In this document: piece by piece, positions 14,524-59,184 of the stretch
Layout: each line of letters opens with the position of its first letter
How positions within the stretch are numbered: the first letter of the stretch is position 1
Notes under the pieces: generated by a model
What the model saw: the letters and a program-made list of their open reading frames with translations, nothing else
The model's database searches: none
Told to the model about the DNA's origin: nothing
From: a virus
Virus record (IMG/VR): IMGVR_UViG_3300040751_004835
Location: 27,375 to 91,374 of that record
Length of the DNA: 64,000 nucleotides
Direction: 5' to 3' (one strand)
Made by a program: the position numbers and the translations under genes

Positions 14524-14531
14524 GATATATA
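14524..14531 (+). promoter_or_regulatory. GATATATA putative late promoter (representative copy)
   Basis: Exact copies at 14524, 14851, 19001, 23380, 27171, 28055, 34067, 42949, 43785, 47415, 49180, 51748, 56744 (+) and 32574, 58838 (-), each just upstream of a gene start. Confidence 0.75.
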
Positions 14532-14552
14532 AAATACAAAAAATACTAAGGT

Positions 14553-14798
14553 ATGAAGAAGTTCTCAGATTTAACCAAAATTAACGAAATGAAGTACGGT
14601 CAGCCAATGTACGGCGAGGATGACCTAAAGCAACATATGAAAGATCTTTTAGTCGCTGCATCTGGCAATGACCAGAGAGTGTTAAACGATATTGTTGATT
14701 GCTTAACTGATGATCAGATGAAAAAGTGCTATGACAAACTGATCAACGATTACAACTACACTGGAAAGAAAGGTGAGGTTGTAAAGCCTAATATGTAA
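14553..14798 (+). CDS. Hypothetical protein with capsid-targeting-like N-terminus
   Basis: MKKFSDLTKINE; GATATATA at 14524; terminator downstream. Confidence 0.65.
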   Translation: MKKFSDLTKINEMKYGQPMYGEDDLKQHMKDLLVAASGNDQRVLNDIVDCLTDDQMKKCYDKLINDYNYTGKKGEVVKPNM

Positions 14799-14816
14799 AT
14801 CTAAATTCATTTAATT

Positions 14817-14846
14817 AAAGCCTTCCTATTTAGGAGGGCTTTTTTG
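14817..14846 (+). terminator. Rho-independent terminator
   Basis: AAAGCCTTCCTA-TT-TAGGAGGGCTTT followed by T run. Confidence 0.8.
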
Positions 14847-14883
14847 TGTTGATATATAACTTGTATTCTTAAACACGTTCATT

Positions 14884-15555
14884 TTGAAAACACTAGTCGG
14901 AATAGATTTTTCCCTCAATTCACCAGCATTTTGTATTTTAAGAGAAAACCAATTTACTTGGGGTTCCCTAACTAGGAGCGACCGGACTGCGGAATCCCTT
15001 AAGAAAAATACTAAAAAACCTTACTATGTTTTATCTGAAGACAAAACGGAAGACTATGTTCTTATGTTTATGTCAAAGGATAAAATGCCAGAAGACTACT
15101 CGGAAAGGGAAAGAATAAAGATAGATTATTTCCAGGAGCTCGTTGATGAATTTTGGTCTGAAATAGAAAATATCTGTGCAGGTGATGACATCATTGTAGC
15201 TATGGAAGGACTAAGTTTTGCCTCTAATGGTAATGCTTTGATTGATATCTCTATGGCCACAGCTCTACTCCGTAAGAAGATAGTTGACCACACAGGTAGC
15301 GATAATTTCTACGTTTATTCGCCAACTTCTATAAAGAAGTTCGCTTTTAAGGGAAATGCAAAAAAGCACGAACTTTATAATTCACTTCTTGATCGCAAAT
15401 TTCCAGAAACTAATTTAGGGTCTTTCACTAGTATTTTAGAAGAAAATAAGGACGAATGGATAACTCCCTCCGGTAATGTAAACAAGCCATTGGATGATAT
15501 TATAGATTCGACCTGGATATGTTTATTTTTATATGACTCAATCAAAGAAGGTTAA
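14884..15555 (+). CDS. RuvC-like Holliday junction resolvase (TTG start)
   Basis: GIDFSLNSPA, VAMEG, PTSIKKFA.KGNAKK, DDIIDS acidic RNase H-fold motifs. Confidence 0.75.
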   Translation: MKTLVGIDFSLNSPAFCILRENQFTWGSLTRSDRTAESLKKNTKKPYYVLSEDKTEDYVLMFMSKDKMPEDYSERERIKIDYFQELVDEFWSEIENICAGDDIIVAMEGLSFASNGNALIDISMATALLRKKIVDHTGSDNFYVYSPTSIKKFAFKGNAKKHELYNSLLDRKFPETNLGSFTSILEENKDEWITPSGNVNKPLDDIIDSTWICLFLYDSIKEG

Positions 15556-16264
15556 CATTCTTATTCCTCTCGGAGGTGCTGGAAGGAGATTCAGCGACGC
15601 TGGATACTTACAGATAAAGCCATTTATAGACGTCAGCGGAGAAACGATGATTAGGTCTGTGATCAAAAACCTAAATCATCAAGATGCACACTTTGTATTT
15701 GTGATAAACGAGGAATATATTTCTCCCACAGAATTTGAATCCCATATATCAGACATGGGAATATCGTTTGAGGTTTTCTCAACCCCAACCCTAACACAAG
15801 GACCAGCTTCAACAGTTCTCTTTGCAAGTCAGTCGATTGATAACGATTTACCCCTTATTGTTGTTAACTGTGATCAGATTATTCTGGATTTCAATCTGGA
15901 CTTCATTTTAGATTTTGCAAGAACTACGGGGTGTGATGGATTGTTGGGATGTTTTCTTTCCTCTTCTAAAAAGAACAGCTATGTTAAGTTAGATCCAAAC
16001 GGAGAGGTCTGTGATGTGAAGGAAAAAATTGTGATTTCCAACATTGCTACTAACGGGTTACATTTTTGGAAGCACGGCAAATACTTTGTAGAAAGTGCGG
16101 AACAAATGATAGCAGCAAACGATCGATATAATAATGAGTTCTACGTTGCACCTACCTACAATTACATGATAAAAAGTGGAAAGAAAATATTGCCCTTCTT
16201 CTATAACCTTCACTTTCCGATAGGTACCCCAGAGGACCTGGATAAATTTTTAAAGTTGGTTTAG
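15533..16264 (+). CDS. Sugar-phosphate nucleotidyltransferase (NTP_transferase family)
   Basis: ILIPLGGAGRRF...KPFIDV, TQGPAST, VNCDQ, VKEK, NEFYVAP, GTPEDL. Confidence 0.85.
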   Translation: MTQSKKVNILIPLGGAGRRFSDAGYLQIKPFIDVSGETMIRSVIKNLNHQDAHFVFVINEEYISPTEFESHISDMGISFEVFSTPTLTQGPASTVLFASQSIDNDLPLIVVNCDQIILDFNLDFILDFARTTGCDGLLGCFLSSSKKNSYVKLDPNGEVCDVKEKIVISNIATNGLHFWKHGKYFVESAEQMIAANDRYNNEFYVAPTYNYMIKSGKKILPFFYNLHFPIGTPEDLDKFLKLV

Positions 16265-23369: not shown

Positions 23370-23393
23370 TCATTTGTCCGATATATAGGATAA

Positions 23394-23894
23394 ATGAGGA
23401 AGATAATGGATAACATAAAAGATTTTCAAAGTTTTCTCAACGAGAATGTTGAAAGAAGAGAACCATATTCTGCTACTGAGTGGATTAAGCAGAAAAGGAG
23501 AAGCATAGAGGCAGAAACCGGCGCTGAGAAAATCTATCAAATGACTTATGATGAAGGCGGGGCTTTACAGAGACTTGTAAGAGGCGCTGTAGAGGGACTG
23601 CAAAAATTGGGTCAGGGAATTGCTGATCTATTTGATTCTGGTAAGGCAGCAAGCATGGATGTTGAGGATCTAAGTAAAAACAAAGACCAGGTGTTATCCA
23701 GATGGGGAGATTCAATTAAAGCCTCTGGAAAAAACAAAAGGGGTGAATATGAGACTTTCTATAGAGATGCTATCCGAAAGGGTAAGTCGACTTTTGGTAA
23801 AGACTTTGATATAAACAACCCACAAGGAAGAGATCAACAGCTTTACAAGGATTACGTCTTTTCTGCCACAGACTATTTTGATTTAGAAAAATGA
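23394..23894 (+). CDS. Hypothetical protein with capsid-targeting-like N-terminus
   Basis: NIKDFQSFLNE; GATATATA at 23380. Confidence 0.65.
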   Translation: MRKIMDNIKDFQSFLNENVERREPYSATEWIKQKRRSIEAETGAEKIYQMTYDEGGALQRLVRGAVEGLQKLGQGIADLFDSGKAASMDVEDLSKNKDQVLSRWGDSIKASGKNKRGEYETFYRDAIRKGKSTFGKDFDINNPQGRDQQLYKDYVFSATDYFDLEK

Positions 23895-24802
23895 GAAACG
23901 TGCTAAAATTTGGGGATTACGTTTCGTTATTTGAAGGCGGAGCGGCGATAAAAGAATCCAGAAGGATAAAGGAGAGTGAGGTTCCAAAAACTATGGAGTC
24001 TATCAAAGAAATCCTTTTCCCTTTGCTTGGTGGTGGTGAGGTAGACAAGGAATACCTTATCATTGGTAGCATCGGTAAGAAGAAAGATCAAAACGACACA
24101 TCTGGAGATATTGACCTCGGAATAGATAAAAAGTTTCTTTCGAAAAGATTAGGTGTTTCCGAGGATGATGTTCTTGGAGCTTTATATAAGAACCTTTCAG
24201 AGACACTACATAACAAACTTGGGTTTGTACCAGATATGAAATTAATGAGGGGAATCAACGTTCTTTCAATTGGCTGGCCTATAGAGGGTGATGCTGAAAA
24301 TGGTATAGTTCAATTGGATCTAATTCCAATTTCTGATATGGACTGGGCTAAGTTTATTTTCTATTCCCCAGATTACAGAAAGAACGAAAGTAAATACAAA
24401 TCAGCTCACAGAAACTGGCTTTTCCAAGCGATCCTTTCTTCTTTGAAGGAAGTGATATCTAAGGACGAGAATGACGAACTAGAAGATTTCTATTCTTATG
24501 CCCTAAGATTGAGCGACGGTATTTTCAAAAATAGAAAGTCCTTCAAAGGAGCTACAAAAAGACTCAAAAGTCCTAAAACAGTTAAAGGTGAAAGTACTTT
24601 GGTAACTAGGGATCCCGATGAGTTTGTTGAGATGATGTTTGGTAGCGGAATTAGAAAGGAAGATCTTAAATCTTTTGAGGATGCTTGGAAAATAGTTTCT
24701 TCACCAAACTTTGTCCATGCAGACAAGAAGGATGAGATCCGGGATGATCTAGAAAGGTACTTAATAAACGGAGGATTTGAAATCCCCACAGAGATCAAAT
24801 AA
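23891..24802 (+). CDS. Pol-beta-superfamily nucleotidyltransferase with capsid-targeting-like N-terminus
   Basis: IIGSIGKK...SGDIDL and VQLDL catalytic motifs; N-terminus MRNVLKFGDYVSLFE. Confidence 0.7.
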   Translation: MRNVLKFGDYVSLFEGGAAIKESRRIKESEVPKTMESIKEILFPLLGGGEVDKEYLIIGSIGKKKDQNDTSGDIDLGIDKKFLSKRLGVSEDDVLGALYKNLSETLHNKLGFVPDMKLMRGINVLSIGWPIEGDAENGIVQLDLIPISDMDWAKFIFYSPDYRKNESKYKSAHRNWLFQAILSSLKEVISKDENDELEDFYSYALRLSDGIFKNRKSFKGATKRLKSPKTVKGESTLVTRDPDEFVEMMFGSGIRKEDLKSFEDAWKIVSSPNFVHADKKDEIRDDLERYLINGGFEIPTEIK

Positions 24803-25258: not shown

Positions 25259-27172
25259 ATGGCGGGAATAAATCACTTATACGACATTTATAATAAGAAG
25301 GGATCTGATTTTGTTAATCAGCTTTTTAATCGTTATGTAACAATTAACGAAAAGATGGACGGTTCAGCCTTCTCTTTTGAGAGGGATAAGGAATCTGGTA
25401 ATTTCCGTTTTTATAGGAGAGACCAAAGAAATCCTATAACTCTAGTAGATAGGACGCTCATGAAATATTATGAGAAGCCAATCCAGTATATCGAATCTCT
25501 TCCACCAAACATACTTGAAAAAATCCCCAGAGGATGGAGATTTGGACTTGAGTATTTTTCAAACACCAAACCCGTAGAGATTTCATATGATAGATTACCA
25601 AAGAATAATCTGATTCTCTCCTATATCCACAAAATGGGTACTGGCGGTAAGATAGAAAGTACTATACAGGATAAGGAAGAATTGGATAATTGGGCAGATC
25701 TGATTGGAGTTGAAAGACCGCCAATCGTTTTCCAGGGGGTGTTGGACGAAGATCAGAAATCTGAGCTTATGGAGTTTTTGAACACGCCGTTCAAAGATCT
25801 TGTTGAAAGGTTCAAAACACAATCTTTTGTTAGGTTTGTTATTAAGACCTTAAACCCGGATTTAACTAAAACTGCTCTTAACGACGACCTAGATAAGGAT
25901 GTCGAGGGTATAGTTTTTAGATTTGGAGAGCTCGATGGAGATAGTGATACTATATTAGCCAAAATGGTGGATCCTATATTCACTGAAATAGCTAAGCAAA
26001 AGTTTGCTGACAAAAAGAGTAAAAAGCCTTCGGATTTTCTTGGAATCACATTGCTTGATGTGATGAATTTCATTTTGGAAAAAGATCTTTCTGAATTTGA
26101 AGTTGAAGGTGAGTCTGAAGACGAGAGATACATTTCCTTTATGGGAGACGTATTTGTTAAATTCCTGGATGAATATGAGGAGAAGTATAAGGGTACTGAT
26201 TTTGAGGAACCTGATTACTTGAAACGGGATGAATTCAGACTGAATAAGGAAAAGATTAAAGACAGAAGAGTTCTTAAATATGTTGAGAAGGATGACTCAT
26301 TTGAGTCTTTATTTAAACTCATCCTTAATTCCTTTAGAAAGATAAAAACTAGAGCTGGAGGTATCATCACCTCTGGGATGAAAGATCAGATGAATCTTTT
26401 AATCAAGGATATCAAGGATTATATTAAAAAACCAGAGAAGAAAGTAAACGAATCAAGGTTTATTAGCTTTGGTGAATTCAGAAAGGAAAACTCTCCTTCG
26501 GTTGAATATCTACAGGAGGAAGACGATTCAGATTCAAGTGATGATCCATTCTTCTCATACCAAGAATTTATTAGCAAACTAGAAACCATTGATAACGAGG
26601 AGATCCCGGCTGAGGTAGAAATGCTCAAGGAGAAAGATACGGAGGAAAGAAAACCAGTTAATGTCATAATGGGTAGATTCCAGCCTTTCCACCAGGGACA
26701 TCTTAAGATGGCGAAGGATCTCATGGAGAAAAACGATCTCCCATCTTTTGTTGTTGTGGTTTATCCTGGACACAACAAGTCTGGAAAATCCCCATTTGAT
26801 GAGGAGGCAATCAAAAGATATATGGATGCAATAGTTGCTAATAACGAGGAGATTGAAGGATATGTCCTTGCTACAAGAGGTCTTCTTGGGTCTGCTATTG
26901 CAAGACTAATAGACATGGGATATGACCCTAAGTTAATTGGTGCAGGCCCCGATCGAATAGACGACTACACTAAGCAGATAGACTATGTTAAGATGTCTGA
27001 TATTAAGGACAAAATAAGTGATGACCTTGGTATTGTAGAAACACCAAGGGTAACGAGCGGTACTGAGGTTAGACAAGCTATGAAGGACCAAGACTTTTCT
27101 AAGTTCAAAAAGATGGTTCCAAAAGAGGTATCTAATCTTTACAACGACCTTATTACAAGCGTCAGGGACTGA
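25259..27172 (+). CDS. Fusion: ATP-dependent (RNA) ligase-like domain plus HxGH cytidylyl/adenylyltransferase domain
   Basis: Ligase motif I EKMDG, motif IV EGIVFR, motif V LAKM; C-terminal GRFQPFHQGH...SPF...GAGPDR...SGTEVR. Confidence 0.7.
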   Translation: MAGINHLYDIYNKKGSDFVNQLFNRYVTINEKMDGSAFSFERDKESGNFRFYRRDQRNPITLVDRTLMKYYEKPIQYIESLPPNILEKIPRGWRFGLEYFSNTKPVEISYDRLPKNNLILSYIHKMGTGGKIESTIQDKEELDNWADLIGVERPPIVFQGVLDEDQKSELMEFLNTPFKDLVERFKTQSFVRFVIKTLNPDLTKTALNDDLDKDVEGIVFRFGELDGDSDTILAKMVDPIFTEIAKQKFADKKSKKPSDFLGITLLDVMNFILEKDLSEFEVEGESEDERYISFMGDVFVKFLDEYEEKYKGTDFEEPDYLKRDEFRLNKEKIKDRRVLKYVEKDDSFESLFKLILNSFRKIKTRAGGIITSGMKDQMNLLIKDIKDYIKKPEKKVNESRFISFGEFRKENSPSVEYLQEEDDSDSSDDPFFSYQEFISKLETIDNEEIPAEVEMLKEKDTEERKPVNVIMGRFQPFHQGHLKMAKDLMEKNDLPSFVVVVYPGHNKSGKSPFDEEAIKRYMDAIVANNEEIEGYVLATRGLLGSAIARLIDMGYDPKLIGAGPDRIDDYTKQIDYVKMSDIKDKISDDLGIVETPRVTSGTEVRQAMKDQDFSKFKKMVPKEVSNLYNDLITSVRD

Positions 27173-27197
27173 TATATAAAAAAATATAAATAAACCA

Positions 27198-27737
27198 GTG
27201 GAAAAAAGAATACAGAATTTCTCAGACTTCCTAAAATCTAGCTCTGTCAACGAAGGAGATGGGTTTGGAACCTTCCCTTTTTTGCTAGTGAAGGATGGTG
27301 ATATTTATAACTACCTTTTTCAATTAGAACTTGAGAATGGATCCCAAAAAGGATTTATGCTGGTAGTTGGTAAATATTCACAGTATGAGACAATGGAGGG
27401 ACCTAAAAATTCCTATGCAATTCTCAATGTAAATGAGATTGCCCCTGAAATCATAGAGGACATTGCTATTAAGAAATCAGAGATTCCTGACCTGAACGAT
27501 GTTAAGTTCACTCTTAAAGATAACGATTTAAGCAGATTCTTGGAGCAGGTATCCAAAGCTTTACTAAATTATCTTGAGAAAAATCCAAAAGTAATTCGTA
27601 TATTTGACGAAATGCAGGATAATATGGATATTGAAAACTATGAAGAGATGGTAAAATCCGTTTTGCTTTCTTTCTTAGGGCCAGAATGGTCTATGCAAGA
27701 AGGATCCCACAAGGGAACGTTCATAATCAGTAGATAA
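27198..27737 (+). CDS. Hypothetical protein with capsid-targeting-like N-terminus (GTG start)
   Basis: MEKRIQNFSDFLKSSSVNE; GATATATA at 27171. Confidence 0.65.
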   Translation: MEKRIQNFSDFLKSSSVNEGDGFGTFPFLLVKDGDIYNYLFQLELENGSQKGFMLVVGKYSQYETMEGPKNSYAILNVNEIAPEIIEDIAIKKSEIPDLNDVKFTLKDNDLSRFLEQVSKALLNYLEKNPKVIRIFDEMQDNMDIENYEEMVKSVLLSFLGPEWSMQEGSHKGTFIISR

Positions 27738-32556: not shown

Positions 32557-32616
32557 AAGTATGTTGTATATATCTTTTGAGATCCTCTCCAAAGATGTAC
32601 TCTCAAATTTTATTCC

Positions 32617-38095: not shown

Positions 38096-38109
38096 ATAAA
38101 TATACTACA

Positions 38110-42946: not shown

Positions 42947-42960
42947 TAGATATATAAAGT

Positions 42961-43518
42961 ATGAAACTAAGGAGCTTTACATCCTATACATCTCACAATA
43001 TAAGTGAATCTTTAAAGTACCATTTAGAGAAGGGCCTTTCCTTAATGGAGAGTGTTTATAGGATTGAATCTGATTCGTGGTTAGATCTAATCAATGAATC
43101 TAGAATTCTTTGGTTGAATGAGGAGATTGATCTTGAACTAGATGATGTTTTTCTGATAAGTACAGATGCTGGTGAGAAAGCTAAGTATGCTGGTGAAGAT
43201 GTAATACTTGACGTTCCTTTTGAACTTAACGAAGAAGAGTATCAGGGTAGACAAGTAAAGCTAAACAAGCCTTTTAGAACCCCAGGGGAAACTAGAAAAT
43301 TTGCAGTATACACTAAGAATGGTGAGGGCAAGGTTGTCAAGGTAAGGTTTGGACAGCCGGGACAAAGGATTAAAAACGATGACAAGAAAGCTTCAAAGTC
43401 GTTTAGAGCTAGACATAGATGTACCGAGCCAGGACCAAAATGGAAACCAAGATATTGGTCTTGCAATGTTCACAGGTATCACAAGCTTTTGGGTCTTAAA
43501 TCTAACAACCCTTGGTAA
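42961..43518 (+). CDS. Conserved T4-like hypothetical protein with capsid-targeting-like N-terminus
   Basis: EYQGRQVKLNKPFR...KFAVY...KSFRARHRC...PRYWSC; leader MKLRSFTSY...ISE; GATATATA at 42949. Confidence 0.65.
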   Translation: MKLRSFTSYTSHNISESLKYHLEKGLSLMESVYRIESDSWLDLINESRILWLNEEIDLELDDVFLISTDAGEKAKYAGEDVILDVPFELNEEEYQGRQVKLNKPFRTPGETRKFAVYTKNGEGKVVKVRFGQPGQRIKNDDKKASKSFRARHRCTEPGPKWKPRYWSCNVHRYHKLLGLKSNNPW

Positions 43519-43793
43519 ACCCATTTTCTGAGGAGAGAATATCAAGCACAGAATTTATAAGATGCTTTGATCAGGACTTAGATCCAGCAGAATTAAAGTG
43601 GCACCAGGACTGGGAAGACCGAACTATCCAGTTTTTGGAATCTAATGATTGGATGTTCCAGTTTGATAACGAGCTTCCGATTAAGTGCATTGGTGAGATA
43701 ACAATTAAATCAGGGACTTGGCACCGGGTAATTAAAGGAAGTGGTAGTTTAAGAGTGAAGATTACTAAACATCCTTTCTCCGAAGATATATAA
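43512..43793 (+). CDS. Small cupin-like protein
   Basis: WHQD.EDR...WMFQFD...WHRVIKG. Confidence 0.55.
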   Translation: MVNPFSEERISSTEFIRCFDQDLDPAELKWHQDWEDRTIQFLESNDWMFQFDNELPIKCIGEITIKSGTWHRVIKGSGSLRVKITKHPFSEDI

Positions 43794-43811: not shown

Positions 43812-44342
43812 ATGAACAATTTAAAATTATATGAGGAGTTTACTAATTCAATCTACGAAGGAGTGACTCCGGTTTATGACGAGTCTAAGTTTAGAAAGAA
43901 TGTAAACATTAGGCCTGAAATGGAACTTAAATATTCTGAAGTAATTCCAGCATTAAGGGATTTACTGGCACAAAAGGAGGCTGGACAGATTGAAAGTATT
44001 ACAGCCATTGCAGAAGTACCAACACAAGGTAAGGGTGCTCCTGATTATGTGAAGGATGTTATCGACCAGGAAAGAGAAAGGTTAGCAAGACAGTACAAAT
44101 CTACGATTGGTAAATCTATTGATAGTGACACGGATGCCGAAGATTTTGATTTTGATCTAAACAGGTTTGGAGATAAAAGAACCATCTTCTTTGATTCTGA
44201 GTTTATTGTTGACCGTGTAGAAACCATCGAGGGCAAAGATTATGTTATAGGGATTCCGGTTTCTTTAAAGGATAAGGGATACGAAGCAAAAATTCTACCG
44301 ATTAAAATTGAGGAGATTTACTTTGAGCCAGCTGGTGAGTAA
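43812..44342 (+). CDS. Hypothetical protein with capsid-targeting-like N-terminus
   Basis: MNNLKLYEEFTNSIYE; GATATATA at 43785. Confidence 0.65.
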   Translation: MNNLKLYEEFTNSIYEGVTPVYDESKFRKNVNIRPEMELKYSEVIPALRDLLAQKEAGQIESITAIAEVPTQGKGAPDYVKDVIDQERERLARQYKSTIGKSIDSDTDAEDFDFDLNRFGDKRTIFFDSEFIVDRVETIEGKDYVIGIPVSLKDKGYEAKILPIKIEEIYFEPAGE

Positions 44343-46255: not shown

Positions 46256-47203
46256 ATGCAAAGGAAGTTTGGATATTGTTGTATAAATCTTTCGCTGAAC
46301 GAAGGCGTCAAAAAGAAAGATAGAATTACAACAAATCGCTCGATGACCAAAAAGACCTTCCTTGCCAAAGGTATAGCTTACGCTTCTGAGTTGTCTTTGC
46401 AAAACGTAAAAGACCTCAAGAAAATACTTGAGTGGAACTACGAGAATGAAATTCTAATGTATAGAATGAGTTCAGACATGTTCCCGTGGTGCTCTGAGTA
46501 TGAGCTAGAAGATCTTCCGCACATAGATGAAATAAAGGAAGCACTTAAACAAGCAGGAGATGTAGCATTATCCACAGGGCAAAGAATCACGTTCCATCCC
46601 TCGCCATATTCTGTTTTAGCTTCTCTAAGGGATGATGTTGTAGATAATGCAATTAAGGAGCTTAGTCAACATGGTGAAATCATGGATTTAATGGGTTTAC
46701 CTAGGAATCACTATTATCCGATTAACATACATGTGAATACCACTCAACCTACAAAGGAGGAAGCTGCAAAAAGATTTTGCGATAACTTTGACCTACTACC
46801 AGAATCTGTGAAATCTAGACTGGTTGTTGAGGTGGATGATAAGGGTTCTCAATACACCTCGGTTGATCTGAAAAGCATGGTTCACGACGAGATAGGAATT
46901 CCTATAACATTCGACTATTTGCACAACAGATGCAACCCACCAGTTGGTCTTTCTGAATCTGAGTCATTGAAGATTTGCATAGACACGTGGCCGGATGGAA
47001 TTACACCGTTAACACATTTTTCTGAGTCTAAAGCACTGTTTGAAGACAACTCTGCAAAGGAGCTAGCACACTCGGATTGGATACACGAAAAGATCGAAAC
47101 ATATGGGTTCGAGTTTGATATAGAATTGGAGGTAAAACAAAAAGATAAAGCCCTTTTGGATTACCACCATAATATCGAACAAATCCTATGTCTCAAGAGC
47201 TAA
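46256..47203 (+). CDS. uvsE: UV-damage endonuclease
   Basis: GYCCIN, YRMSSDMFP, RITFHP, INIHV, FDYLH, HFSES, AHSD, ELEVKQKDKA; start reassigned to MQRKFG. Confidence 0.85.
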   Translation: MQRKFGYCCINLSLNEGVKKKDRITTNRSMTKKTFLAKGIAYASELSLQNVKDLKKILEWNYENEILMYRMSSDMFPWCSEYELEDLPHIDEIKEALKQAGDVALSTGQRITFHPSPYSVLASLRDDVVDNAIKELSQHGEIMDLMGLPRNHYYPINIHVNTTQPTKEEAAKRFCDNFDLLPESVKSRLVVEVDDKGSQYTSVDLKSMVHDEIGIPITFDYLHNRCNPPVGLSESESLKICIDTWPDGITPLTHFSESKALFEDNSAKELAHSDWIHEKIETYGFEFDIELEVKQKDKALLDYHHNIEQILCLKS

Positions 47204-47439
47204 CAAAAGAAGATCTAAAAAAATTTGAAGAATTTGAAAAAACCATTCTTAACCTTAAAGATTCATCCGTAAGATATAAGAGGGATGATGAAATGGAGGT
47301 TCAGATAAAGAAAGAAGTACTTTACTCAAACTTTGGAAAGGACAAAGTAGATCAGATTTTGGAAAAGCTAAAGGTTAATTTTACCGATTTAATCGATCAC
47401 AAGGTTTATATAGAGATATATAAATTTTTAGACTCATGA
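47188..47439 (+). CDS. Hypothetical protein
   Basis: 83 aa ORF overlapping the uvsE end. Confidence 0.5.
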   Translation: MSQELTKEDLKKFEEFEKTILNLKDSSVRYKRDDEMEVQIKKEVLYSNFGKDKVDQILEKLKVNFTDLIDHKVYIEIYKFLDS

Positions 47440-49170: not shown

Positions 49171-49202
49171 TATCTCCTGGATATATAGCATAAATATTTC
49201 CA

Positions 49203-50300
49203 ATGATGGGAAGGATTAAGTCTTTTAGTGAGTTTGGTAAAAAATTAAATGAAGATGCAGCAGCTTCTGCTGGCGAGTTTATCGGTCAGGCTAAAGCGGA
49301 TGCTGCAAATAGACCTACTCCCGGATCTACCACCCCTTCATCAACAAAACCATCCACCAGGGGAAGGAAAGTATTATTTGGTGGCGATGGTAAGGTCACT
49401 GGATTGGATCTATTCTTAGCTACTAAAGCAGGACAAGGACTGGAAAGCTGGTTTTTAGCAAACCAAGATATAGGAAGTGGTACACCCTCAGATTCACCGG
49501 AAACTGCGGACGAGATAATTGCCCACATTGGGAGAAATCAACATGAAAGGGATAGAGTAAACAGAAATTTAGAGATAGCTAGGGAAGAAAATCCTTCCTT
49601 TGAAGCTATTGCACCAGATGCTAATTTATTACCACCAAGTAGACCTTACACTTATAGTAATCTAGAAAACCTTACTTATGATAGGGTGAAAGATTTTTTA
49701 GTCGAGTCGGGGGAATGGAGCAAAATAGATAAGGAGAGATACACTATTGTTGCTTTGCGAAATAAGTTAAGCTTAAAGAAAAGATCCCACAATCATTTTA
49801 TAGATGCTTTAGTTTTAATGTCTCCTGAATCTGACAAAAAAGTTTGGGCATATAAAGCAACAACGGTGCCTGGTCCAATGTTTATGGTTCAGGAATTTAG
49901 AAATTGGTATCTTACCCACGGAAAGGGCGATGTCATTAATCCTAAGGGACTTGCAATTATCCAGCCTGGTGTATATAATTATAAAGTAGGAACCCATAAG
50001 GGATACCAAGCTTTTGTACAAGATGGAAATGTAAAGGTTGATAGATATAAACCAGTTAATGGACCAGAGTCTGTTGATTTTGAAACCTTCTCGCCGGGAA
50101 ATACTGAATCCGGTAAATTTGGAATTAACATTCATAGAGCTTCCGCAAGCGGGACTACCCAAAACGTTAATACATATTCCGCTGGATGTCTTGTTTTTTC
50201 AAATCCGAACGACCTTAAGGAGGTTCTTAAAAAGTTAAAAGGTGCACGCCAAAGGAAAGTTCAGTTGGCGGTAGTTCAGTTGGATGATACTGCTAGCTGA
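49203..50300 (+). CDS. YkuD/L,D-transpeptidase-like cell-wall enzyme with capsid-targeting-like N-terminus
   Basis: ATTVPG, PGVY, FGINIHRA...SAGCLVF (His...Cys); leader MMGRIKSFSEFGKKLNE; GATATATA at 49180. Confidence 0.6.
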   Translation: MMGRIKSFSEFGKKLNEDAAASAGEFIGQAKADAANRPTPGSTTPSSTKPSTRGRKVLFGGDGKVTGLDLFLATKAGQGLESWFLANQDIGSGTPSDSPETADEIIAHIGRNQHERDRVNRNLEIAREENPSFEAIAPDANLLPPSRPYTYSNLENLTYDRVKDFLVESGEWSKIDKERYTIVALRNKLSLKKRSHNHFIDALVLMSPESDKKVWAYKATTVPGPMFMVQEFRNWYLTHGKGDVINPKGLAIIQPGVYNYKVGTHKGYQAFVQDGNVKVDRYKPVNGPESVDFETFSPGNTESGKFGINIHRASASGTTQNVNTYSAGCLVFSNPNDLKEVLKKLKGARQRKVQLAVVQLDDTAS

Positions 50301-50379: not shown

Positions 50380-51756
50380 TTGGTGGCGAATACTTTAACT
50401 ATAACAGATCAGATCAATCAAAAGTATAGAGACTATGCACTCTATGTTTTGCAATCTAGGGGGATTCCAAATTTCTACGATTCACTAACTCCAGTACAGA
50501 GGATAATTATTGAGAATAGTCCCAACTCTTTCAATAAAACAATTGGTCTTGTTGGAGAGGTAATTAGAACTGGGTTATATCACCATGGGGATTCTTCTCT
50601 TGCAGGTGCAATCTCGAAATTAGCCAGACCTTTTGGCTGTTCTTTTGAAATTCTAGAGGGAGATGGATTCTTTGGGTCTCCGGTTAACCCTAACCCCTCT
50701 GCCCCAAGATATACTGCGGTGAAGATTAACCGTAGCATAAAGGAAATAGTAGAAAAGCATAAGGATCTCAACGAAAAAAACGAAGAGGGCGGGTTCGACT
50801 GGCTTCATTTAGAAATTCCTATTGGATTGCTTACACACATTGTTGGTATTGCAGTTGGATATAGAAGTAATATCCTTCCTAGAAAGGTCGAGGATATCGT
50901 AGAATATCTTGAGGGTAAAAACAAGCTTCTAAAACCCTATTTCAAAGATTTTTCTGGTAAGATTTATAAGTTAGATTCTGATGATTCTTGGATCATAGAA
51001 AGTGGGTTTGAAATAAATGAAAGGAAAAAGACCCTCCGGATTTTTGACCTCCCACCAATTATGAGGTATGAATCTTTTATGAAAAAGCTTCTTGGTAAGC
51101 TTGAGGCATATGGCTATGACTACTATCTCGAAAACAATTCACAGAGCAAATGTGATATAGGAATATCCCTTAAAAAGGTAAACCCAAAAGAGTTTAAAGA
51201 AGCTGTAGAAGTCATAAAGAAACAGACTCAGATAGTTGTCAGGGAAAATGTTGTGTTTATTAAGGATGGATCAGTAGCACAGTTCGACTCTGTAAAATCT
51301 TACCTGGATTCTTTCAAGGTACATTTAGAAAATGTTAGGCTCAAAAGGCTGATGAAAGATGAAGTTGATTTGAAGCTAGACTTAGAGTTTTTAGAGGCTA
51401 AGCTAAAGTTCTTGATTTTCATGAGTCAAAAGAAGAGACAAAATAAGGAGATTGTAGAATTTCTTAGTAAGTTTGCTAAGTGGATATCATCCAGGCTTTC
51501 CCAAATTCAAATAGTGAAGCTTTCCTCAGATCATATCAAAGAAACTGAGGGAATGATCAAGGACATAAAGAAACGAATCCAGGAAACTAAGAAGGCTATC
51601 ACAAAGCAACAGCAGGTGGTTAAAAAGGTAACTGCTGCATTGAAGAAAACCAAATCAGCTTCATTAATTCCAAAATCCGTTGTACCTAAATCACTTTCAT
51701 TAGACCCAGAGATAGAAGTATTTGATCTGGAAGAGGAAGACGAGGAAGATATATAA
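50380..51756 (+). CDS. Type II topoisomerase breakage-reunion subunit (T4 gp52-like)
   Basis: RGIPNFYDSLTPVQR, YHHGDSS, GDGFFG, catalytic APRYT. Confidence 0.9.
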   Translation: MVANTLTITDQINQKYRDYALYVLQSRGIPNFYDSLTPVQRIIIENSPNSFNKTIGLVGEVIRTGLYHHGDSSLAGAISKLARPFGCSFEILEGDGFFGSPVNPNPSAPRYTAVKINRSIKEIVEKHKDLNEKNEEGGFDWLHLEIPIGLLTHIVGIAVGYRSNILPRKVEDIVEYLEGKNKLLKPYFKDFSGKIYKLDSDDSWIIESGFEINERKKTLRIFDLPPIMRYESFMKKLLGKLEAYGYDYYLENNSQSKCDIGISLKKVNPKEFKEAVEVIKKQTQIVVRENVVFIKDGSVAQFDSVKSYLDSFKVHLENVRLKRLMKDEVDLKLDLEFLEAKLKFLIFMSQKKRQNKEIVEFLSKFAKWISSRLSQIQIVKLSSDHIKETEGMIKDIKKRIQETKKAITKQQQVVKKVTAALKKTKSASLIPKSVVPKSLSLDPEIEVFDLEEEDEEDI

Positions 51757-51772: not shown

Positions 51773-52774
51773 ATGGAAAATATACACAGCTTTTCTAAAA
51801 GGTATTTTCTTTCATTGGATGAGTCTCTAAACATTAACTGGTCCGGATCTGGGCTTCCGTTAGAACAGGAGATCGAAATCAACGGCGAGTCTATTAAGCC
51901 CTATGTAATAGCAATGGGCATAGTTGATTCTTGGTTAGAAAATATCAAGGAAGTTACTGCAGGGAACATCGAAAAAAGCTCGGATAGGGCGATCTTTAAT
52001 GCTGCTTTTAACAGAATTTCGAAAAAGATATTTCCTACTCTCATAAGCTACCTATTACCTAGCATTGAATTTGAAGGGAAGGAAGTTATTAAAACCAAGA
52101 AAGCTTCACCAGCTTCATTTTGGAAAGAAGCCTGGCCTCAAGTTTGGAACGAGTTTAGCAAAATTGAAAGGGGGTTAATTTCTAAGTTCACCACCCTCAA
52201 CAAAGACACTTCATACGATGAGATCATGAAAAGTCTTGGTAGTACGCTTTCGGATTCTAGCCCATATAAAGGTTACAAGCCTTTAATTGGACAACAGGTA
52301 AAGCTTTTCTATGACATGATGGGAAATGGATTTTCTCAGATGTTCAATAATGAGAAGGTTTCGCTTAACAACGATTTAATCCTTGCCTTAGGTAATGACT
52401 TAAATAGTAATATTAATGGATCTAAGATTGATTTTGGAATAGGCAAAAAAGAAGATGTCAAAGGCAATTTGGAAAAACTTCCTTCAAAAGATATTTCTAA
52501 AGTTGCTCAAAAGGGGATTGATAGTGTTGTTCAAACGTTATCCAAATTTACCGAGAAGGCTTTTGATCCTCAAAAATCTAAAGATAACGCCGATACTGCA
52601 AGTAAAGATTCCGGGGAAGCTAAAGATAAAGGTGATAATGCTAAAGCATCAACAGGTGGTTCTGCTGATCAACCAGCATACCCAACAGACGTGCAAAGTA
52701 TCAGGAAATGGGCAAAAACTCTAAATCCTGTAGACAAAAGGGTAATTATTGATACGCTAAGATCAACCCTTTAA
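51773..52774 (+). CDS. Hypothetical protein with capsid-targeting-like N-terminus
   Basis: MENIHSFSKRYFLSLDE; GATATATA at 51748 supports this start. Confidence 0.6.
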   Translation: MENIHSFSKRYFLSLDESLNINWSGSGLPLEQEIEINGESIKPYVIAMGIVDSWLENIKEVTAGNIEKSSDRAIFNAAFNRISKKIFPTLISYLLPSIEFEGKEVIKTKKASPASFWKEAWPQVWNEFSKIERGLISKFTTLNKDTSYDEIMKSLGSTLSDSSPYKGYKPLIGQQVKLFYDMMGNGFSQMFNNEKVSLNNDLILALGNDLNSNINGSKIDFGIGKKEDVKGNLEKLPSKDISKVAQKGIDSVVQTLSKFTEKAFDPQKSKDNADTASKDSGEAKDKGDNAKASTGGSADQPAYPTDVQSIRKWAKTLNPVDKRVIIDTLRSTL

Positions 52775-52826: not shown

Positions 52827-52835
52827 GTGTTAGAC

Positions 52836-52863
52836 GAAAACAAATCGTTTTACCTCTATAGAA
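52836..52863 (+). promoter_or_regulatory. G[AG]AA-N19-TA[TG]AA element before clamp/polymerase C-half
   Basis: GAAA-19 nt-TAGAA right after a terminator. Confidence 0.6.
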
Positions 52864-52885
52864 GAATAAAGTTAAAACGTAAGAA

Positions 52886-53647: not shown

Positions 53648-53651
53648 AAGA

Positions 53652-55631: not shown

Positions 55632-56752
55632 TGGCAAAACCTTATGATTATATTATTGTTGGATCAGGTCTCTTCGGTAGTGTATTTGCACAACAAGCAA
55701 CTGAGGCAGGCAAGAAATGCCTTATCCTCGAAAGGAGAGACCACAATGGTGGAAATTGCTACACAGAGAATGTTGAGGGAATAGAGGTCCACAAATACGG
55801 CCCACACATTTTTCATACCTCGGACAAGGGTATTTGGGAATACGTAAACAGATTTGCAGAGTTCAACAATTACGTAAACAAACCCAAGGTAAGGCATGGG
55901 AATAGAATGTATTCATTCCCAATAAACCTAATGACACTTCACCAGCTATTTGGTGTATCAACGCCGGAGGAAGCCAGAAAAAAACTTGATGAGGTAAAGG
56001 TAAAAATTAAGAACCCGTCCAATCTAGAAGAATGGGTTTTAAATGAGGTTGGTGAGGAAATTTATGAAAAGTTCATAAAAGGATATACAACAAAGCAATG
56101 GGGCAGGGATCCTAAGGAACTTCCATCATTTATAATCAGGAGACTTCCGATCAGATTAACTTACGACGAGAATTATTTCTTTGATCGATATCAGGGAATT
56201 CCTATAGGTGGATATACCAAGATGATAGAGAACATTCAAGGAGATGTTGAAGTAAGGTTTAGTGTGGATTTCCTACAGGAAAGAGAATACTGGGAATCCC
56301 AGGCACATAAGATAGTTTTCACCGGCCCCATAGATGAATTTTTTGGATTCTCCGAGGGAGTGCTAGAATACAGAAGTCTAGACTTTGAAACATCGGTGTT
56401 GGATATAGAGGATTATCAGGGCAATGCAATTGTGAACTATACGGAGGCTGAAATACCTTGGACTAGAATATGTGAGCACAAGCACTTTGATTGGACTAAG
56501 ACAGATAAAACTGTTATTACTAAGGAATATCCAGCAGAGTGGGAGGTTGGTAAGGAAAGATTCTATCCGGTCTCTGACGACAAAAACAAGGAGGTGTATG
56601 GTAGGTATAAAAAACTTGCTGACCAAATTTCAGACAGATATATTTTTGGAGGACGTCTAGCAGAGTATAAGTATTATGATATGCACCATGTTATAGGTAG
56701 TGCATTAGCGAGGTCCAAGAGGGAAATAAGAAACATCTCTGAGGATATATAG
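55631..56752 (+). CDS. glf: UDP-galactopyranose mutase
   Basis: IVGSGLFG, GGNCY, HKYGPHIFHT, GYTTKQWG, YQGIP, YRSL, TRI.EHKHF, GRLAEYKYYDM. Confidence 0.95.
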   Translation: MAKPYDYIIVGSGLFGSVFAQQATEAGKKCLILERRDHNGGNCYTENVEGIEVHKYGPHIFHTSDKGIWEYVNRFAEFNNYVNKPKVRHGNRMYSFPINLMTLHQLFGVSTPEEARKKLDEVKVKIKNPSNLEEWVLNEVGEEIYEKFIKGYTTKQWGRDPKELPSFIIRRLPIRLTYDENYFFDRYQGIPIGGYTKMIENIQGDVEVRFSVDFLQEREYWESQAHKIVFTGPIDEFFGFSEGVLEYRSLDFETSVLDIEDYQGNAIVNYTEAEIPWTRICEHKHFDWTKTDKTVITKEYPAEWEVGKERFYPVSDDKNKEVYGRYKKLADQISDRYIFGGRLAEYKYYDMHHVIGSALARSKREIRNISEDI

Positions 56753-56770
56753 GATAAATTATTTGTCTTA

Positions 56771-58261
56771 ATGAAGAAGGTAACCCCTGCTCTTAATTTC
56801 GAATCTTTTCTTAACGAAGCTAAGGATAACGGGATGGTTGACATCCTTATTTTAAGCGGGGAGTCTAAGCCCAGCAAAACTGCAAAATCTTTTCTTGAAG
56901 AATGTGGAAAAATGGACATACCGTGTAACGTGGTAAATGTCAACAATGTGGTGTTGGAAAAAATATACAACGGACACATTGTTAAATTTTCTGATGGTGA
57001 CGAGACTAAAGAGATCTTAATTAAACCTGAGACTACTGCTATAATTCCTAGAAGAGGTGTAATTACAAACTCCTATACTAAGCAGATAATGAGAGATCTA
57101 GAAGCTGCTAGATACTTTTGTGTCAACACATTAGAATCCATTGAAATCTGTGAAAGTAAATACCTTACCTCAAAAGTTCTGGAGGAAGAAGGACTGCCAA
57201 TCCCAAGATATTCTTTGGTTAATGGAATAGATGGACTTGATAGAGCATTGGAAGAAGTTGGTGGTGAATTCCCGGTTGTCATGAAACTTCTTTCTGGAGC
57301 ACAAGGAATCGGAGTTTCCATTGTTGATTCATATGCTTCTCTTAAATCAGTTTATCAAACTATTGAGAAGCTTGATCCGGATGGAGAAATTCTGTTACAA
57401 GAAAAAATTGATTCGAACTTTGATGTTAGAGTCCAAGTGATTGTAAAGAAGTTTGATCCACTAAATCCTGGTGCTGAGAATTGCGAAGTATTAGGGGCAA
57501 TGAAAAGAGAAGCGGTTGAGAAGGACTTTAGAACTAATTATACTTTAGGCGGAGAAGTTTCTGCTTATGAAATAACTGAGGAGATTGAAAGAATAGCTTG
57601 TGAAGCTGCAAATGCTGTTTCGTGCCACTGGTGTGGAGTTGATATAATGATAGATTCTAAAACCAACAAGCCTTATATCTTGGAGGTAAACTCATCACCA
57701 GGAACGGATGGAATTTCACAAGCAATAGGAAAACCCATTGTGGATGATGTGATTAACTATGTCGTTAAAAAAGATAATTGGTCCCAATCTAAGCTTGAAG
57801 TTGGGTATTTAGAAACTATTGAGATTCCTCAAATTGGTAAAATGGTAGCTAAGTTTGATACCGGAAATGGATCTACTGCTTCCTCAATACATGCTGATGA
57901 AATATCTGAAGATGGTGATACACTTACCTGGAAGATAGGAGACAATGAAATGAGTGGTAAGATTATCGGACGGACAAAAACCGAAATTGGTAGAGGTACG
58001 GAAGAAAGACCTATTGTAAAAATGGATATTCTTTTCAATGGAGTTAAGATTCCAGGAGTTAAGGTTGCTCCAACCGACAGGATTTCAAAAAGTACCCCAT
58101 TCTTAGCAAACAGACCGCTGATGAAAAAGCTGGGGGTAATGGTCAATCCACACAAAGCATTTGTAGTCTCTGATCGTATTGATGACTATTCACCTATGCA
58201 AGCTAAAGGTGATCCTTATGGAGGAATTGAATTTATGGAAATTTCTGACCAGGAGGATTAA
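56771..58261 (+). CDS. rimK: RimK-family ATP-grasp ligase fused to RimB-like aspartic protease; capsid-targeting-like N-terminus
   Basis: FPVVMK...GAQGIGV, LLQEKI, DFRTN, GVDI, LEVNSSPG; C-domain AKFDTGN...ERPIV...FLANR; leader ALNFESFLNE. Confidence 0.85.
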   Translation: MKKVTPALNFESFLNEAKDNGMVDILILSGESKPSKTAKSFLEECGKMDIPCNVVNVNNVVLEKIYNGHIVKFSDGDETKEILIKPETTAIIPRRGVITNSYTKQIMRDLEAARYFCVNTLESIEICESKYLTSKVLEEEGLPIPRYSLVNGIDGLDRALEEVGGEFPVVMKLLSGAQGIGVSIVDSYASLKSVYQTIEKLDPDGEILLQEKIDSNFDVRVQVIVKKFDPLNPGAENCEVLGAMKREAVEKDFRTNYTLGGEVSAYEITEEIERIACEAANAVSCHWCGVDIMIDSKTNKPYILEVNSSPGTDGISQAIGKPIVDDVINYVVKKDNWSQSKLEVGYLETIEIPQIGKMVAKFDTGNGSTASSIHADEISEDGDTLTWKIGDNEMSGKIIGRTKTEIGRGTEERPIVKMDILFNGVKIPGVKVAPTDRISKSTPFLANRPLMKKLGVMVNPHKAFVVSDRIDDYSPMQAKGDPYGGIEFMEISDQED

Positions 58262-58289
58262 ATATATAAAGTAGAAATAAATTCCAATT

Positions 58290-58469
58290 ATGGCAAAAGG
58301 AGAAGATAAAACAGAAAAAATCCAGGTCCTGTTATCAACAGAAGACCTGGAAGAACTAAGTAAAAAGATTTCTAAGAAGGCTTTGACCTCTGGGGAACCC
58401 CCAGTTTCAATTTCTCATTATGTAAGGGGTCTAATCAGAAGAGATCTTGGAAGATCTGAGAGAGATTAA
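58290..58469 (+). CDS. Ribbon-helix-helix-like DNA-binding protein (absent from ORF track)
   Basis: Hand translation MAKGEDKTEKIQVLLSTEDLEELSKKISKKALTSGEPPVSISHYVRGLIRRDLGRSERD; AATATATA at 58261. Confidence 0.65.
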   Translation: MAKGEDKTEKIQVLLSTEDLEELSKKISKKALTSGEPPVSISHYVRGLIRRDLGRSERD

Positions 58470-58804
58470 TCTCTGTTATTAAGAAAATCTTCAAACCTCA
58501 TTACTCTACCGGGTGATGAGGTTTCTTGTGATTGCTGAACTGGCTCTACTGGAGCAGGTTCCGATGGGATCTCCGCTGTAGTAGGTTCTTGTAGAGAATC
58601 TGTTTGGTCGACTGGGTCGGTTTGATCCATTTGCTGTGGTTCTGTAGTTTCCGTAGGATCAACAGACATTTCTGGGGTTTCCTCCTCAGCGTCGGTTTGT
58701 TCAAAATCAGTCACCTCGGGGGTAAGTTCTTCTTGTTCTGTAGGCTGTTCGTTAGTAAAATCAACCTGATCTTCGATTTGTGTATCTCTTTCTTCTGTAG
58801 ACAT
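58466..58804 (-). CDS. Acidic disordered protein with C-terminal targeting-like motif
   Basis: E/Q/T/P/D-rich, ends RVMRFEDFLNNRD; minus-strand GATATATA at 58838-58831. Confidence 0.65.
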   Translation of the reverse strand: MSTEERDTQIEDQVDFTNEQPTEQEELTPEVTDFEQTDAEEETPEMSVDPTETTEPQQMDQTDPVDQTDSLQEPTTAEIPSEPAPVEPVQQSQETSSPGRVMRFEDFLNNRD

Positions 58805-58827
58805 TTCGATTATCTATTAGTGTTATT

Positions 58828-58838
58828 GAATATATATC
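58828..58838. promoter_or_regulatory. Bidirectional RATATATA promoter element
   Basis: GAATATATATC reads AATATATA on + (gene 58864) and GATATATA on - (gene 58804). Confidence 0.6.
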
Positions 58839-58863
58839 AAGTAAAACAATAAGTGTTTCGGCT

Positions 58864-59184
58864 ATGAGATTAATTAGAGAATTTGACGACTTTATGTCCG
58901 ACCTATCCTTAACCCAACCAGAGCAGGCTATGATTAGGGATTTTGTTAAGAAATATGAGAAGTATTTTAAGTTCCACGATCCTGCAGAATTTGAAAATTC
59001 ATTGGATAAGATAGTTGATGATGTAATGTCAACATACAAGTTTCCACCAGAGAAAAGGGACGACGTAATGAATTACATATCTAGCCTTCATGACCTCTCA
59101 GATGGGATATCTGTTATCATGTCTCCAAATCCACAAATTACATACCGGACACAACCAGATATGGTACAGACCATTTTAATGTAG
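58864..59184 (+). CDS. Hypothetical protein with capsid-targeting-like N-terminus
   Basis: MRLIREFDDF; AATATATA at 58829. Confidence 0.6.
   Translation: MRLIREFDDFMSDLSLTQPEQAMIRDFVKKYEKYFKFHDPAEFENSLDKIVDDVMSTYKFPPEKRDDVMNYISSLHDLSDGISVIMSPNPQITYRTQPDMVQTILM

Follow-up and report, generated by a model that had tools for sequence, protein, structure and literature searches.

Proteins carried inside the phage capsid take effect during the first seconds of an infection and constitute a main arena of the phage-host arms race. T4 examples are IPI*, which blocks a restriction enzyme, and Alt, which modifies RNA polymerase. The capsid targeting sequence (CTS) borne by the internal proteins of T4 and its removal by gp21 were reportedly described by Mullaney and Black in 1996, while Thomas and Black are said to have described propeptide-bearing ejection proteins of giant phages in 2013. 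In the T4 record, both ipII and ipIII begin with MKTYQEFIAE/A (here and below, a slash marks the cut, predicted or known), and a third open reading frame (ORF), which we take to be ipI from its fit to the literature description (the gene name in the record being unchecked), begins with the 19-residue leader MKTFKEFT-STTTPVST-ITE/A. Thus, T4 itself has an aromatic-x-x-aromatic part and an I-x-E part, with or without an insertion. Suppressor experiments with the IPIII CTS found that targeting is determined mainly by residues 4 and 7 (Tyr and Phe) and processing by residues 8 and 10 (Ile and Glu), while an Asp at position 10 prevents cutting and leaves targeting intact (PMC9026906). The CTS was also proposed as a possible general loading device of T4-like phages for varied proteins (PMC9026906), so the concept is already known. 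T4 Alt is a head-carried, gp21-trimmed, and injected ADP-ribosyltransferase that acts on host targets at once (PMC9026906), and in phiKZ and SPN3US many inner-head proteins, including the virion RNA polymerase, are cut after x-x-E by a gp21-related protease and ejected (PMC5694885). Here, we analyzed a 64,000-nucleotide stretch of phage DNA (bases 27375-91374 of a 91,374-bp IMG/VR virus contig; hereafter the window), in which 12 gene starts encode a similar N-terminal peptide, [ILV]-[KR]-x-F-x-x-F ... [ILV]-x-E, hereafter referred to as the tag (Table 1).

The original prediction, made from the sequence of the window, had listed these 12 N-termini as a shared capsid-targeting peptide, and all of them read as given. 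The first part of the tag consists of a hydrophobic residue, a basic residue, and an aromatic-x-x-aromatic motif usually followed by Leu or Ile, and the second part, 0-6 residues further on, is [ILV]-x-Glu. Ten of the 12 tags are canonical. The [FY]-x-x-[FY] spacing is found in 10 (the exceptions are 14553, with F-x-x-L, and 51773, with F-x-x-x-Y) and the [ILV]-x-E end in 11 (LNE four times, INE twice, and VNE, LFE, ISE, IYE, and LDE once each), 58864 being the one without it. The bodies of the tagged proteins belong to different Pfam or PHROG families or to none. The predicted likeness to the T4 CTS MKTYQEFIAE, which is cut by gp21 after (I/L)-x-E, extends to the critical residues, as the tags retain all four of the experimentally tested positions (4, 7, 8, and 10). 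A 10-20-residue N-terminal leader on otherwise unrelated proteins is likewise the arrangement of the CTS of IPI, IPII, and IPIII and of the Alt propeptide, all of which are removed by gp21 (PMC9026906, PMC3012670), and the IPI leader is already in two parts with an insertion, as are some of the tags. They differ in that the first aromatic of the tag is usually at position 7 rather than 4 and that its end favors h-N-E.

Relatives of the contig were identified via its first gene, which yielded 17, five of them with enough upstream DNA to reach the head region. Two were read whole: G004, with a neighboring protein 89% identical, and G006, which is 230 kb in length and 85% complete. As expected under the original prediction, the motif is enriched at N-termini. 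A regular expression for its core matched 10 of the 91 N-termini in the contig, compared with 1.7 expected from the internal rate (P = 1.5e-5). A hidden Markov model (HMM) trained only on the window tags was used instead of a low-pseudocount position-specific scoring matrix, which was overfitted. In the independent relative G006, this model detected 20/279 N-terminal windows versus 10/1125 internal windows (odds ratio 8.6, P = 2e-8). T4 IPII/IPIII and the scaffold repeats described below are not ranked highly by the HMM, which indicates that it is lineage-specific. In orthologs from G006 and three further relatives, the leader persists even beside linkers too diverged to be aligned, as in 49203 and 23394. 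Such a pattern might also be created at the level of nucleic acid, either from a copied cassette of promoter and 5' coding sequence or from A-rich initiation regions that encode similar peptides by chance; gene starts in the window are indeed A-rich and have no Shine-Dalgarno sites, and T4 internal-protein loci are shuffled by recombination. However, different synonymous codons are used at the conserved F, L, I, K, and E positions, which places the selection on the peptide and not on the DNA. Furthermore, the leaders differ in sequence and length, the distance between promoter box and ATG varies from 4 to 27 nt, the conservation spans families at 30-60% identity, and an A-rich bias does not yield Phe-x-x-Phe-Leu-x-Glu. 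With codons that vary synonymously, spacing that is not fixed, and conservation across whole families, we consider an artefact of this kind excluded for practical purposes.

The tag had also been proposed to be grafted onto host-type enzymes, and four tagged proteins bear this out in their domain arrangement. The 38110 protein matches Pfam ADK (PF00406; 1e-37, 129.9 bits versus a cut-off of 26.8) from aa 28 to 180, with the P-loop GPPGSGK located after the leader. In 119/120 of its closest database homologs (58-96% identity), the leader is kept as ..K-x-F-x-x-F-[LIV]-N-E/R-x-[LI]-P-D, the single homolog without it being an N-terminally short sequence, and insertions are found only between the F-x-x-F and h-N-E parts. 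From family resemblance and contig sizes, the distant tagged homologs appear to be of phage origin. The 56771 protein matches Pfam RimK (PF08443; 5e-32, 111.4 bits versus a cut-off of 21) at aa 129-330, and 119/120 of its closest homologs keep the leader L-[ND]-F-x-S-F-[LI]-N-E/[AS]. RimK homologs of the T4-like phages Mosig (Pelagibacter) and Melnitz (Methylophilales) have the CTS-like leaders MQVQPFKNYLEE/A and (M)TQKFSQFITE/E, respectively. The protein had been described as a RimK-protease, but its residues 330-496 have no family match in Pfam, leaving the protease part unsupported.

The clearest case of leader modularity, judged from the N-termini of its homologs, is the nucleotidyltransferase family of 23891, in which the predicted boundary falls exactly at E/GG. 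Among 150 representatives that are mutually <50% identical, 75 have a leader of 6-33 residues with its x-E end abutting a conserved GG[NKHA]A, while another 23 begin with M-GG.., i.e. at the predicted cut. Some of the 75 leaders nearly reproduce the T4 CTS, for example MKTFKQFLAE/GGNA. The 23891 protein had no Pfam match at E <= 0.01; its assignment comes from a GS..DxD..D motif, in which G59-S60, D73-x-D75, and D143 are invariant in 68 sequences, and from an AlphaFold model (predicted local distance difference test [pLDDT] 94.7) with Foldseek top matches that are all DNA polymerase beta (E 6e-4, with template modeling [TM] scores of only 0.32-0.38). The leader is modeled as a helix at aa 7-14. 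The description of 49203 as L,D-transpeptidase-like holds for its predicted YkuD fold and its His/Cys motif (invariant H311 and S326-A-G-C329, matching S-x-G-C), but not at the level of Pfam, where it matched neither YkuD (PF03734) nor any other family. Its model has a pLDDT of 83, and nearly all Foldseek matches are L,D-transpeptidases or L,D-carboxypeptidases (best E 1.4e-4, low TM). The leader is present in 35/35 full-length homologs and absent from short domain-only homologs, and some homologs carry an additional Peptidase_M23 domain. The modeled fold makes this protein a candidate cell-wall enzyme, which would be a natural kind of ejected protein. Searches of PDB sequences with 23891, 49203, and the protease of the relatives gave nothing useful, and ESM Atlas provided leads only.

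If the tag is a targeting peptide of the T4 kind, a gp21-like protease should be encoded elsewhere in the genome, as the original prediction anticipated. It is not on the contig, but the Peptidase_S77 domain was found in 5/5 of the relatives with upstream DNA, in each case within an ORF of ~670 aa; four exceed the Pfam cut-off and the fifth, from G008, scores 26.6 bits versus a cut-off of 27. A search with PF03420 (Peptidase_S77) found no match in the contig of the window or in three relatives found via 51773, all of which are 19-33% fragments, so absence is not implied. The protease of the relatives matches the PHROG head maturation protease phrog_207 (1e-33), begins with MNESLLNE (T4: MNEPQLLIE), and has a His and a Ser that align with H85 and S140 of T4 gp21, presumably the catalytic residues. 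The relatives also encode a Gp23-family capsid protein (Pfam 8e-42) and a T4-type gp20 portal (Portal_T4 5e-59), and the propeptide of the capsid protein aligns with that of T4, ending in ..HYHSLNE/SAG compared with ..SFLTE/AEI. From these relatives, whose neighboring protein is 55-89% identical, we infer the same head machinery for the phage of the window. In G004, tagged proteins are encoded close by the protease and capsid genes and begin with ..VVKGFSDFVLNE, MSRIKSHKQFLIE, MLLSFKQWESQNINE, ..HIKKLDEFPIFEGVNE, and MANNIKSFEDFKSESVNE; gp67, gp68, and core proteins occupy the same relative position in T4. Directly before the protease gene of G004 is a 903-aa ORF (L033:1781-4492) with internal tag-like motifs near residues 110 (VSSFSDYVKLLE) and 640, and its G006 ortholog has SFDEFAQIYE near residue 110; this protein may have a long propeptide or be a polyprotein. 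The portal gene of G004 is one of two similar adjacent ORFs (542 and 534 aa; bases 28017-31259, L032) with alike N-termini, the first of which is the Portal_T4 match (5e-59).

The protease ORF of the relatives also contains a scaffold-like domain. In all five, the C-terminal two thirds of the ORF contain 13-14 tandem repeats with a period of exactly 14 residues and the core Y-[ST]-x-Y-[LIV]-A-E, each repeat ending in a protease-type site (h-A-E). The fusion (L033:4558-6564 in G004; L026-L030) has repeats of the type YSEYLAENLDKGI, and a GATATATA box within the ORF is followed 62 nt on by an in-frame ATG, which predicts a nested scaffold protein of 436-442 aa, an arrangement comparable to lambda C/Nu3. 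The more distant LR756500 (capsid protein 46% identical) has only degenerate repeats, and in its head region neither an excess of GATATATA nor a clear shared tag is seen. Cargo tag, T4 CTS, and scaffold repeat have a common seven-residue core (F-E-N-F-L-N-E, Y-Q-E-F-I-A-E, and Y-S-E-Y-L-A-E, respectively). Because the repeats share this core with the tag, the tag most likely functions as a single free scaffold repeat, which would co-assemble with the core. The same peptide might instead serve as a docking motif for a hub outside the capsid, such as the sliding clamp, the chaperones, or a replication or transcription factory. The clamp-binding tails of T4 are short aromatic/acidic peptides and F-x-x-F-L motifs elsewhere bind clamps or hubs; moreover, the window encodes DnaJ-like and Hsp20-like proteins and many of the tagged genes are in the replication region. 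A hub-binding peptide would not account for a motif that is confined to N-termini and continues into [ILV]-x-E, a sequence matching the predicted cut site of the capsid propeptide as well, nor for its occurrence on proteins of the head gene cluster, its match to both the scaffold repeat core and the four tested T4 positions, or the leaderless family members that start right after the Glu. Consequently, we regard hub docking as very unlikely. Separately from the repeats, a 163-aa ORF at window 29928-30419 (+), kept in G006, carries a free-standing copy of the N-arm of the major capsid protein: its residues 84-127 match residues 43-99 of the G004 capsid protein, from the predicted maturation cut onward (BLASTP E 7e-9), and are followed by a lysine run and then a C-terminal tag-like RVIKSFDDFKEMM.

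A second claim of the original prediction was that a shared promoter marks the tagged genes. The GATATATA box occurs 15 times in the window versus 3.25 +/- 1.9 times in dinucleotide shuffles (15 was reached by 0/100), and all 18 copies in the 91-kb contig are directly upstream of a co-oriented gene start. As had been claimed, nine tagged starts have an exact box (4-21 nt ahead), two have variants with one mismatch each (AATAAATA 7 nt upstream of 38110 and AATATATA 27 nt upstream of 58864), and the remaining gene, 23891, is coupled behind 23394, the stop codon of which it overlaps (ATGA). Tag and box co-occur with similar odds ratios in the contig (10.9, P = 4e-4) and in G006 (11.9, P = 1e-6), so the association itself is supported. 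Nevertheless, half of the boxes in the contig precede untagged genes, including those for a single-stranded DNA-binding protein (SSB) and a RuvC-like protein. In G004 and G006, the box precedes a sheath-sized gene, the portal, the protease, the in-frame start within the protease ORF, and baseplate genes in addition to tagged genes, and in the relatives it is also found ahead of tail genes. For these reasons, GATATATA is not a cargo mark by itself, but the general promoter of this lineage, of a type that suggests late expression. It has no conserved -35 element beside it, which is the same single-element design as the T4 late promoters (TATAAATA in T4), and the relatives encode a gp55-like late sigma factor (phrog_234). 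For window positions 40001-60000, salt-marsh metatranscriptome contigs (90-99% identical) cover parts of 42961, 49203, 51773, and 56771, which shows that these tagged genes are transcribed and nothing more, the uncovered parts carrying no meaning. Several of these contigs begin 10-30 nt downstream of a box, a weak hint given that contigs cannot show transcript starts or timing. Two boxes are only 4 and 6 nt from the annotated ATG (window 42949-42963 and 23380-23396), as is that of the G006 adenylate kinase gene (4 nt); either the mRNAs have little or no leader, or translation starts from a later Met, such as Met5 in 23394. At 58829-58838, an AT-rich palindrome-like site can be read as a box from either strand, with AATATATA belonging to 58864(+) and GATATATA to 58466-58804(-), and is likely a divergent promoter pair.

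The shared peptide is probably this lineage's version of the T4 CTS, responsible for docking on the scaffold, cleavage by the S77 protease, packaging into the head, and delivery. The tag would form a short amphipathic helix in which two aromatics spaced three apart and the next Leu/Ile dock the protein on the prohead scaffolding core, while the prohead protease of gp21 type (Peptidase S77) would cut at the [ILV]-x-Glu end. Once the protease had removed the leader, the mature protein would stay in the head with the DNA and be available for the next host cell. The tagged genes would be transcribed together with structural genes from GATATATA, which lacks a -35, presumably by the gp55-like sigma factor. 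The scaffold would be an array of short amphipathic helices that is later chopped by the protease, and a cargo leader would be one such helix joining the array. Predicted cargo in the window numbers ~11 proteins, namely the adenylate kinase, the RimK-type ligase, the Pol-beta-type nucleotidyltransferase, the YkuD-fold enzyme, and seven proteins with no function assignable by Pfam or PHROG.

Several observations weigh against this interpretation. There are no head genes on the 91-kb contig (33% complete), which is why the relatives have to stand in for it. The likeness between tag and scaffold repeat is confined to the seven-residue core, the tag HMM giving the repeats no high score, and the boxes ahead of the SSB and RuvC-like genes leave the lateness of the promoter unproven. 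The tagged genes sit among replication and nucleotide-metabolism genes, where the adenylate kinase could act simply in the infected cell. The short-form RimK of cyanophage S-RIM8 has no leader, and the 'structural protein' label of the YerA41 RimK homolog was rejected as supporting evidence, since ribonucleotide reductase is likewise flagged as particle-associated in that record and the homolog is untagged. A weightier reservation than hub docking is that cleavage and entry into the head fall short of proving delivery: among the small tagged proteins, some may belong to the core and be destroyed, and the enzymes may act in the producing cell as well. Taken further, this would mean that the leader is a prohead-protease propeptide, but that most tagged proteins are never delivered, being either core accessories that are degraded or expelled, as T4 gp67 and gp68 are at maturation, or cytoplasmic enzymes for which the leader has a regulatory role alone, with a zymogen-like release late in infection and packaging incidental at most. 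The small size and unassigned function of several tagged proteins, the destruction of core proteins by the T4 protease, and the location of the enzymes in the replication and nucleotide-metabolism region would all fit. However, each of the four folded enzymes has just one site, at the leader boundary, and not many, the leader is retained in hundreds of homologs, and activating a zymogen in the cytoplasm would call for a protease whose T4 counterpart works only within the prohead. On balance, we think it unlikely that most of the tagged proteins go undelivered. As for the CTS interpretation, a more specific version of it can be proposed, although only tentatively: the tag would be a free copy of the 14-residue repeat, the cargo would be released by the same cuts that dismantle the scaffold, and an entire clade (the Lak phages and other huge Bacteroidota phages have relatives here from marine and estuarine waters, joined by some T4-like Pelagibacter and Methylophilales phages) would inject an enzyme kit that acts before phage gene expression. 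The adenylate kinase, RimK-type protein-glutamate ligase, nucleotidyltransferase, and cell-wall enzyme of this kit would act on host nucleotide pools, ribosomes, or other targets.

Table 1. Tagged genes, GATATATA-type boxes, and G006 orthologs in the window (positions are those of the window; a slash marks the predicted cut).
Gene (strand)	Product	Leader	Box	Box position (strand)	Remark	G006 ortholog
14553..14798 (+)	81-aa tagged ORF	MKKFSDLTKINE/M	GATATATA	14524..14531 (+)	weaker; Leu at second aromatic position	80% identical, leader and box both retained
23394..23894 (+)	166-aa tagged ORF, function unassigned	..NIKDFQSFLNE/N	GATATATA	23380..23387 (+)		body alignable only from aa 40; own leader MTPRLKNFSMFSEAINRE all the same
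23891..24802 (+)	303-aa putative Pol-beta-type nucleotidyltransferase	MRNVLKFGDYVSLFE/GGAAI			translationally coupled to 23394	
27198..27737 (+)	179-aa tagged ORF	..RIQNFSDFLKSSSVNE/G	GATATATA	27171..27178 (+)	GTG start	53% identical, leader VKVILPYSQFITQLNE/A
32230..32556 (-)	108-aa tagged ORF	MDSRIKSFENFLNE/Y	GATATATA	32567..32574 (-)		leader MTPRIKSFKKFLSE/S
38110..38769 (+)	219-aa adenylate kinase	MEKVRNFENFIAINE/R	AATAAATA (variant)	38095..38102 (+)		exact GATATATA
42961..43518 (+)	185-aa tagged ORF (phrog_7595)	MKLRSFTSYTSHNISE/S	GATATATA	42949..42956 (+)		
43812..44342 (+)	176-aa tagged ORF	MNNLKLYEEFTNSIYE/G	GATATATA	43785..43792 (+)		
47188..47439 (+)	83-aa extra candidate	..DLKKFEEFEKTILNLKD			absent from the earlier list; Asp in place of expected Glu; tag HMM 10.1 bits	ends ILQLE
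49203..50300 (+)	365-aa protein; predicted YkuD-fold (L,D-transpeptidase/carboxypeptidase-like) domain	MMGRIKSFSEFGKKLNE/D	GATATATA	49180..49187 (+)	disordered linker after leader	
51773..52774 (+)	333-aa tagged ORF, function unassigned	MENIHSFSKRYFLSLDE/S	GATATATA	51748..51755 (+)	F-x-x-x-Y spacing	canonical leader MNSIIKFSDYILEEE
56771..58261 (+)	496-aa RimK-type ATP-grasp ligase	MKKVTPALNFESFLNE/A	GATATATA	56744..56751 (+)		
58864..59184 (+)	106-aa ORF, partial member	MRLIREFDDFMSDL	AATATATA (variant)	58829..58836 (+)	F-x-x-F core, no h-x-E; box overlaps minus-strand GATATATA 58831-58838 of untagged gene 58466-58804(-)	has LSE
	untagged RuvC-like gene		GATATATA	14851..14858 (+)		
	other untagged genes, with boxes at 19001 (gp32-like SSB), 28055, 34067 (NTP pyrophosphohydrolase), and 47415		GATATATA			

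A few tag-like sequences were found outside of the set in Table 1. The 637-aa ligase-cytidylyltransferase fusion at 25259-27172 (+) was rejected as a tagged protein, as the Glu of its apparent leader (..VTINE/KMDG) precedes the KxDG active-site lysine of the ligase. At the junction of its two domains is an internal tag-like RFISFGEF...VEYLQE, kept in G006, which may be a relic of a formerly separate tagged gene or an internal cleavage site. Ahead of the window, a 935-aa protein (contig bases 2643-5450; L007:2643-5450) has the tag-like leader MAILPDKIIQDYEFEAFIKRVNE/G, which is kept in G004; since its gene follows that of the gp5-like baseplate hub, this is a tag-like leader on a tail-region gene. 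Lastly, three tandem paralogs on the minus strand of G006 (bases 147039-149948, L043), which have the identical leader VKHLQSFSLFEA and a GATATATA box each, look like a recently amplified cargo family.

The contig is 33% complete by CheckV, implying a genome of ~270 kb. Tail and baseplate genes, including those for the gp5-like hub and a gp6-like wedge, are found in the contig ahead of the window and in the window's first 14 kb, while the remainder of the window contains T4-style replication and nucleotide-metabolism genes (gp32-like SSB, primase, gp41-like helicase, split family-B polymerase, and ribonucleotide reductase). Matches at the DNA level point to phages of Flavobacteriia, and the stretch is present in DNA runs from estuary, seawater, and salt-marsh metagenomes. 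Its source is an uncultured T4-related giant phage with marine Bacteroidota as hosts. The nearest deposited relatives of the capsid protein are from huge uncultured phages and the Lak phages of Prevotella, next Tenacibaculum phage PTm1, and then the classical T4-likes. Tenacibaculum phage pT24, suggested as a relative by a ribonucleotide reductase match, was dropped due to its different gene content.

The system would count among those of the T4 CTS/gp21 kind, from a T4-superfamily branch that is distant and uncultured, with an unusually large enzyme-rich cargo set and tag-like scaffold repeats. Judging from the relatives, it would have in common with T4 the S77 protease, a gp23-type capsid protein whose propeptide ends in h-x-E, and the single-element promoter of presumed late type. 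The scale is different: at least 11 predicted cargo genes are found in 45 kb of a one-third genome, and ~20 N-terminal matches in the 85%-complete G006, whereas T4 has three internal proteins plus Alt. Unlike those of T4, the tagged genes are dispersed through the replication region, the predicted cargo includes housekeeping-type enzymes, the promoter is GATATATA, and the scaffold, made up of tag-like repeats in tandem, forms a fusion with the protease in the relatives; the lineage is known here from sequence alone. Alt offers a functional analogy for the tagged RimK-type ligase or nucleotidyltransferase, although the enzyme class differs, its leader is not a canonical CTS, and it is also processed C-terminally. 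The propeptides of phiKZ and SPN3US are mostly >100 residues and share no single short motif, and those phages differ in lineage, capsid-family context, and host phylum.

Capsid-borne proteins of uncultured phages escape ordinary annotation, and here a simple rule predicts candidates, namely that the genome encodes an S77 protease and the protein starts with an aromatic-x-x-aromatic helix whose end is [ILV]-x-E. An adenylate kinase and a RimK-type ligase, in particular, would not have been expected among the predicted cargo, which leads to testable hypotheses about an immediate-early phage takeover of the nucleotide pools and translation apparatus of marine Bacteroidota. To our knowledge, how the targeting sequence is recognized is still unsettled for T4 itself, and the likeness of tag and scaffold repeat offers a structural account of T4-type targeting. 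The leader could also become a packaging handle for engineering phages of this group. If the tag is indeed a free scaffold repeat and the clade does inject its enzyme kit, the injected proteomes of uncultured T4-superfamily phages would be readable from sequence.

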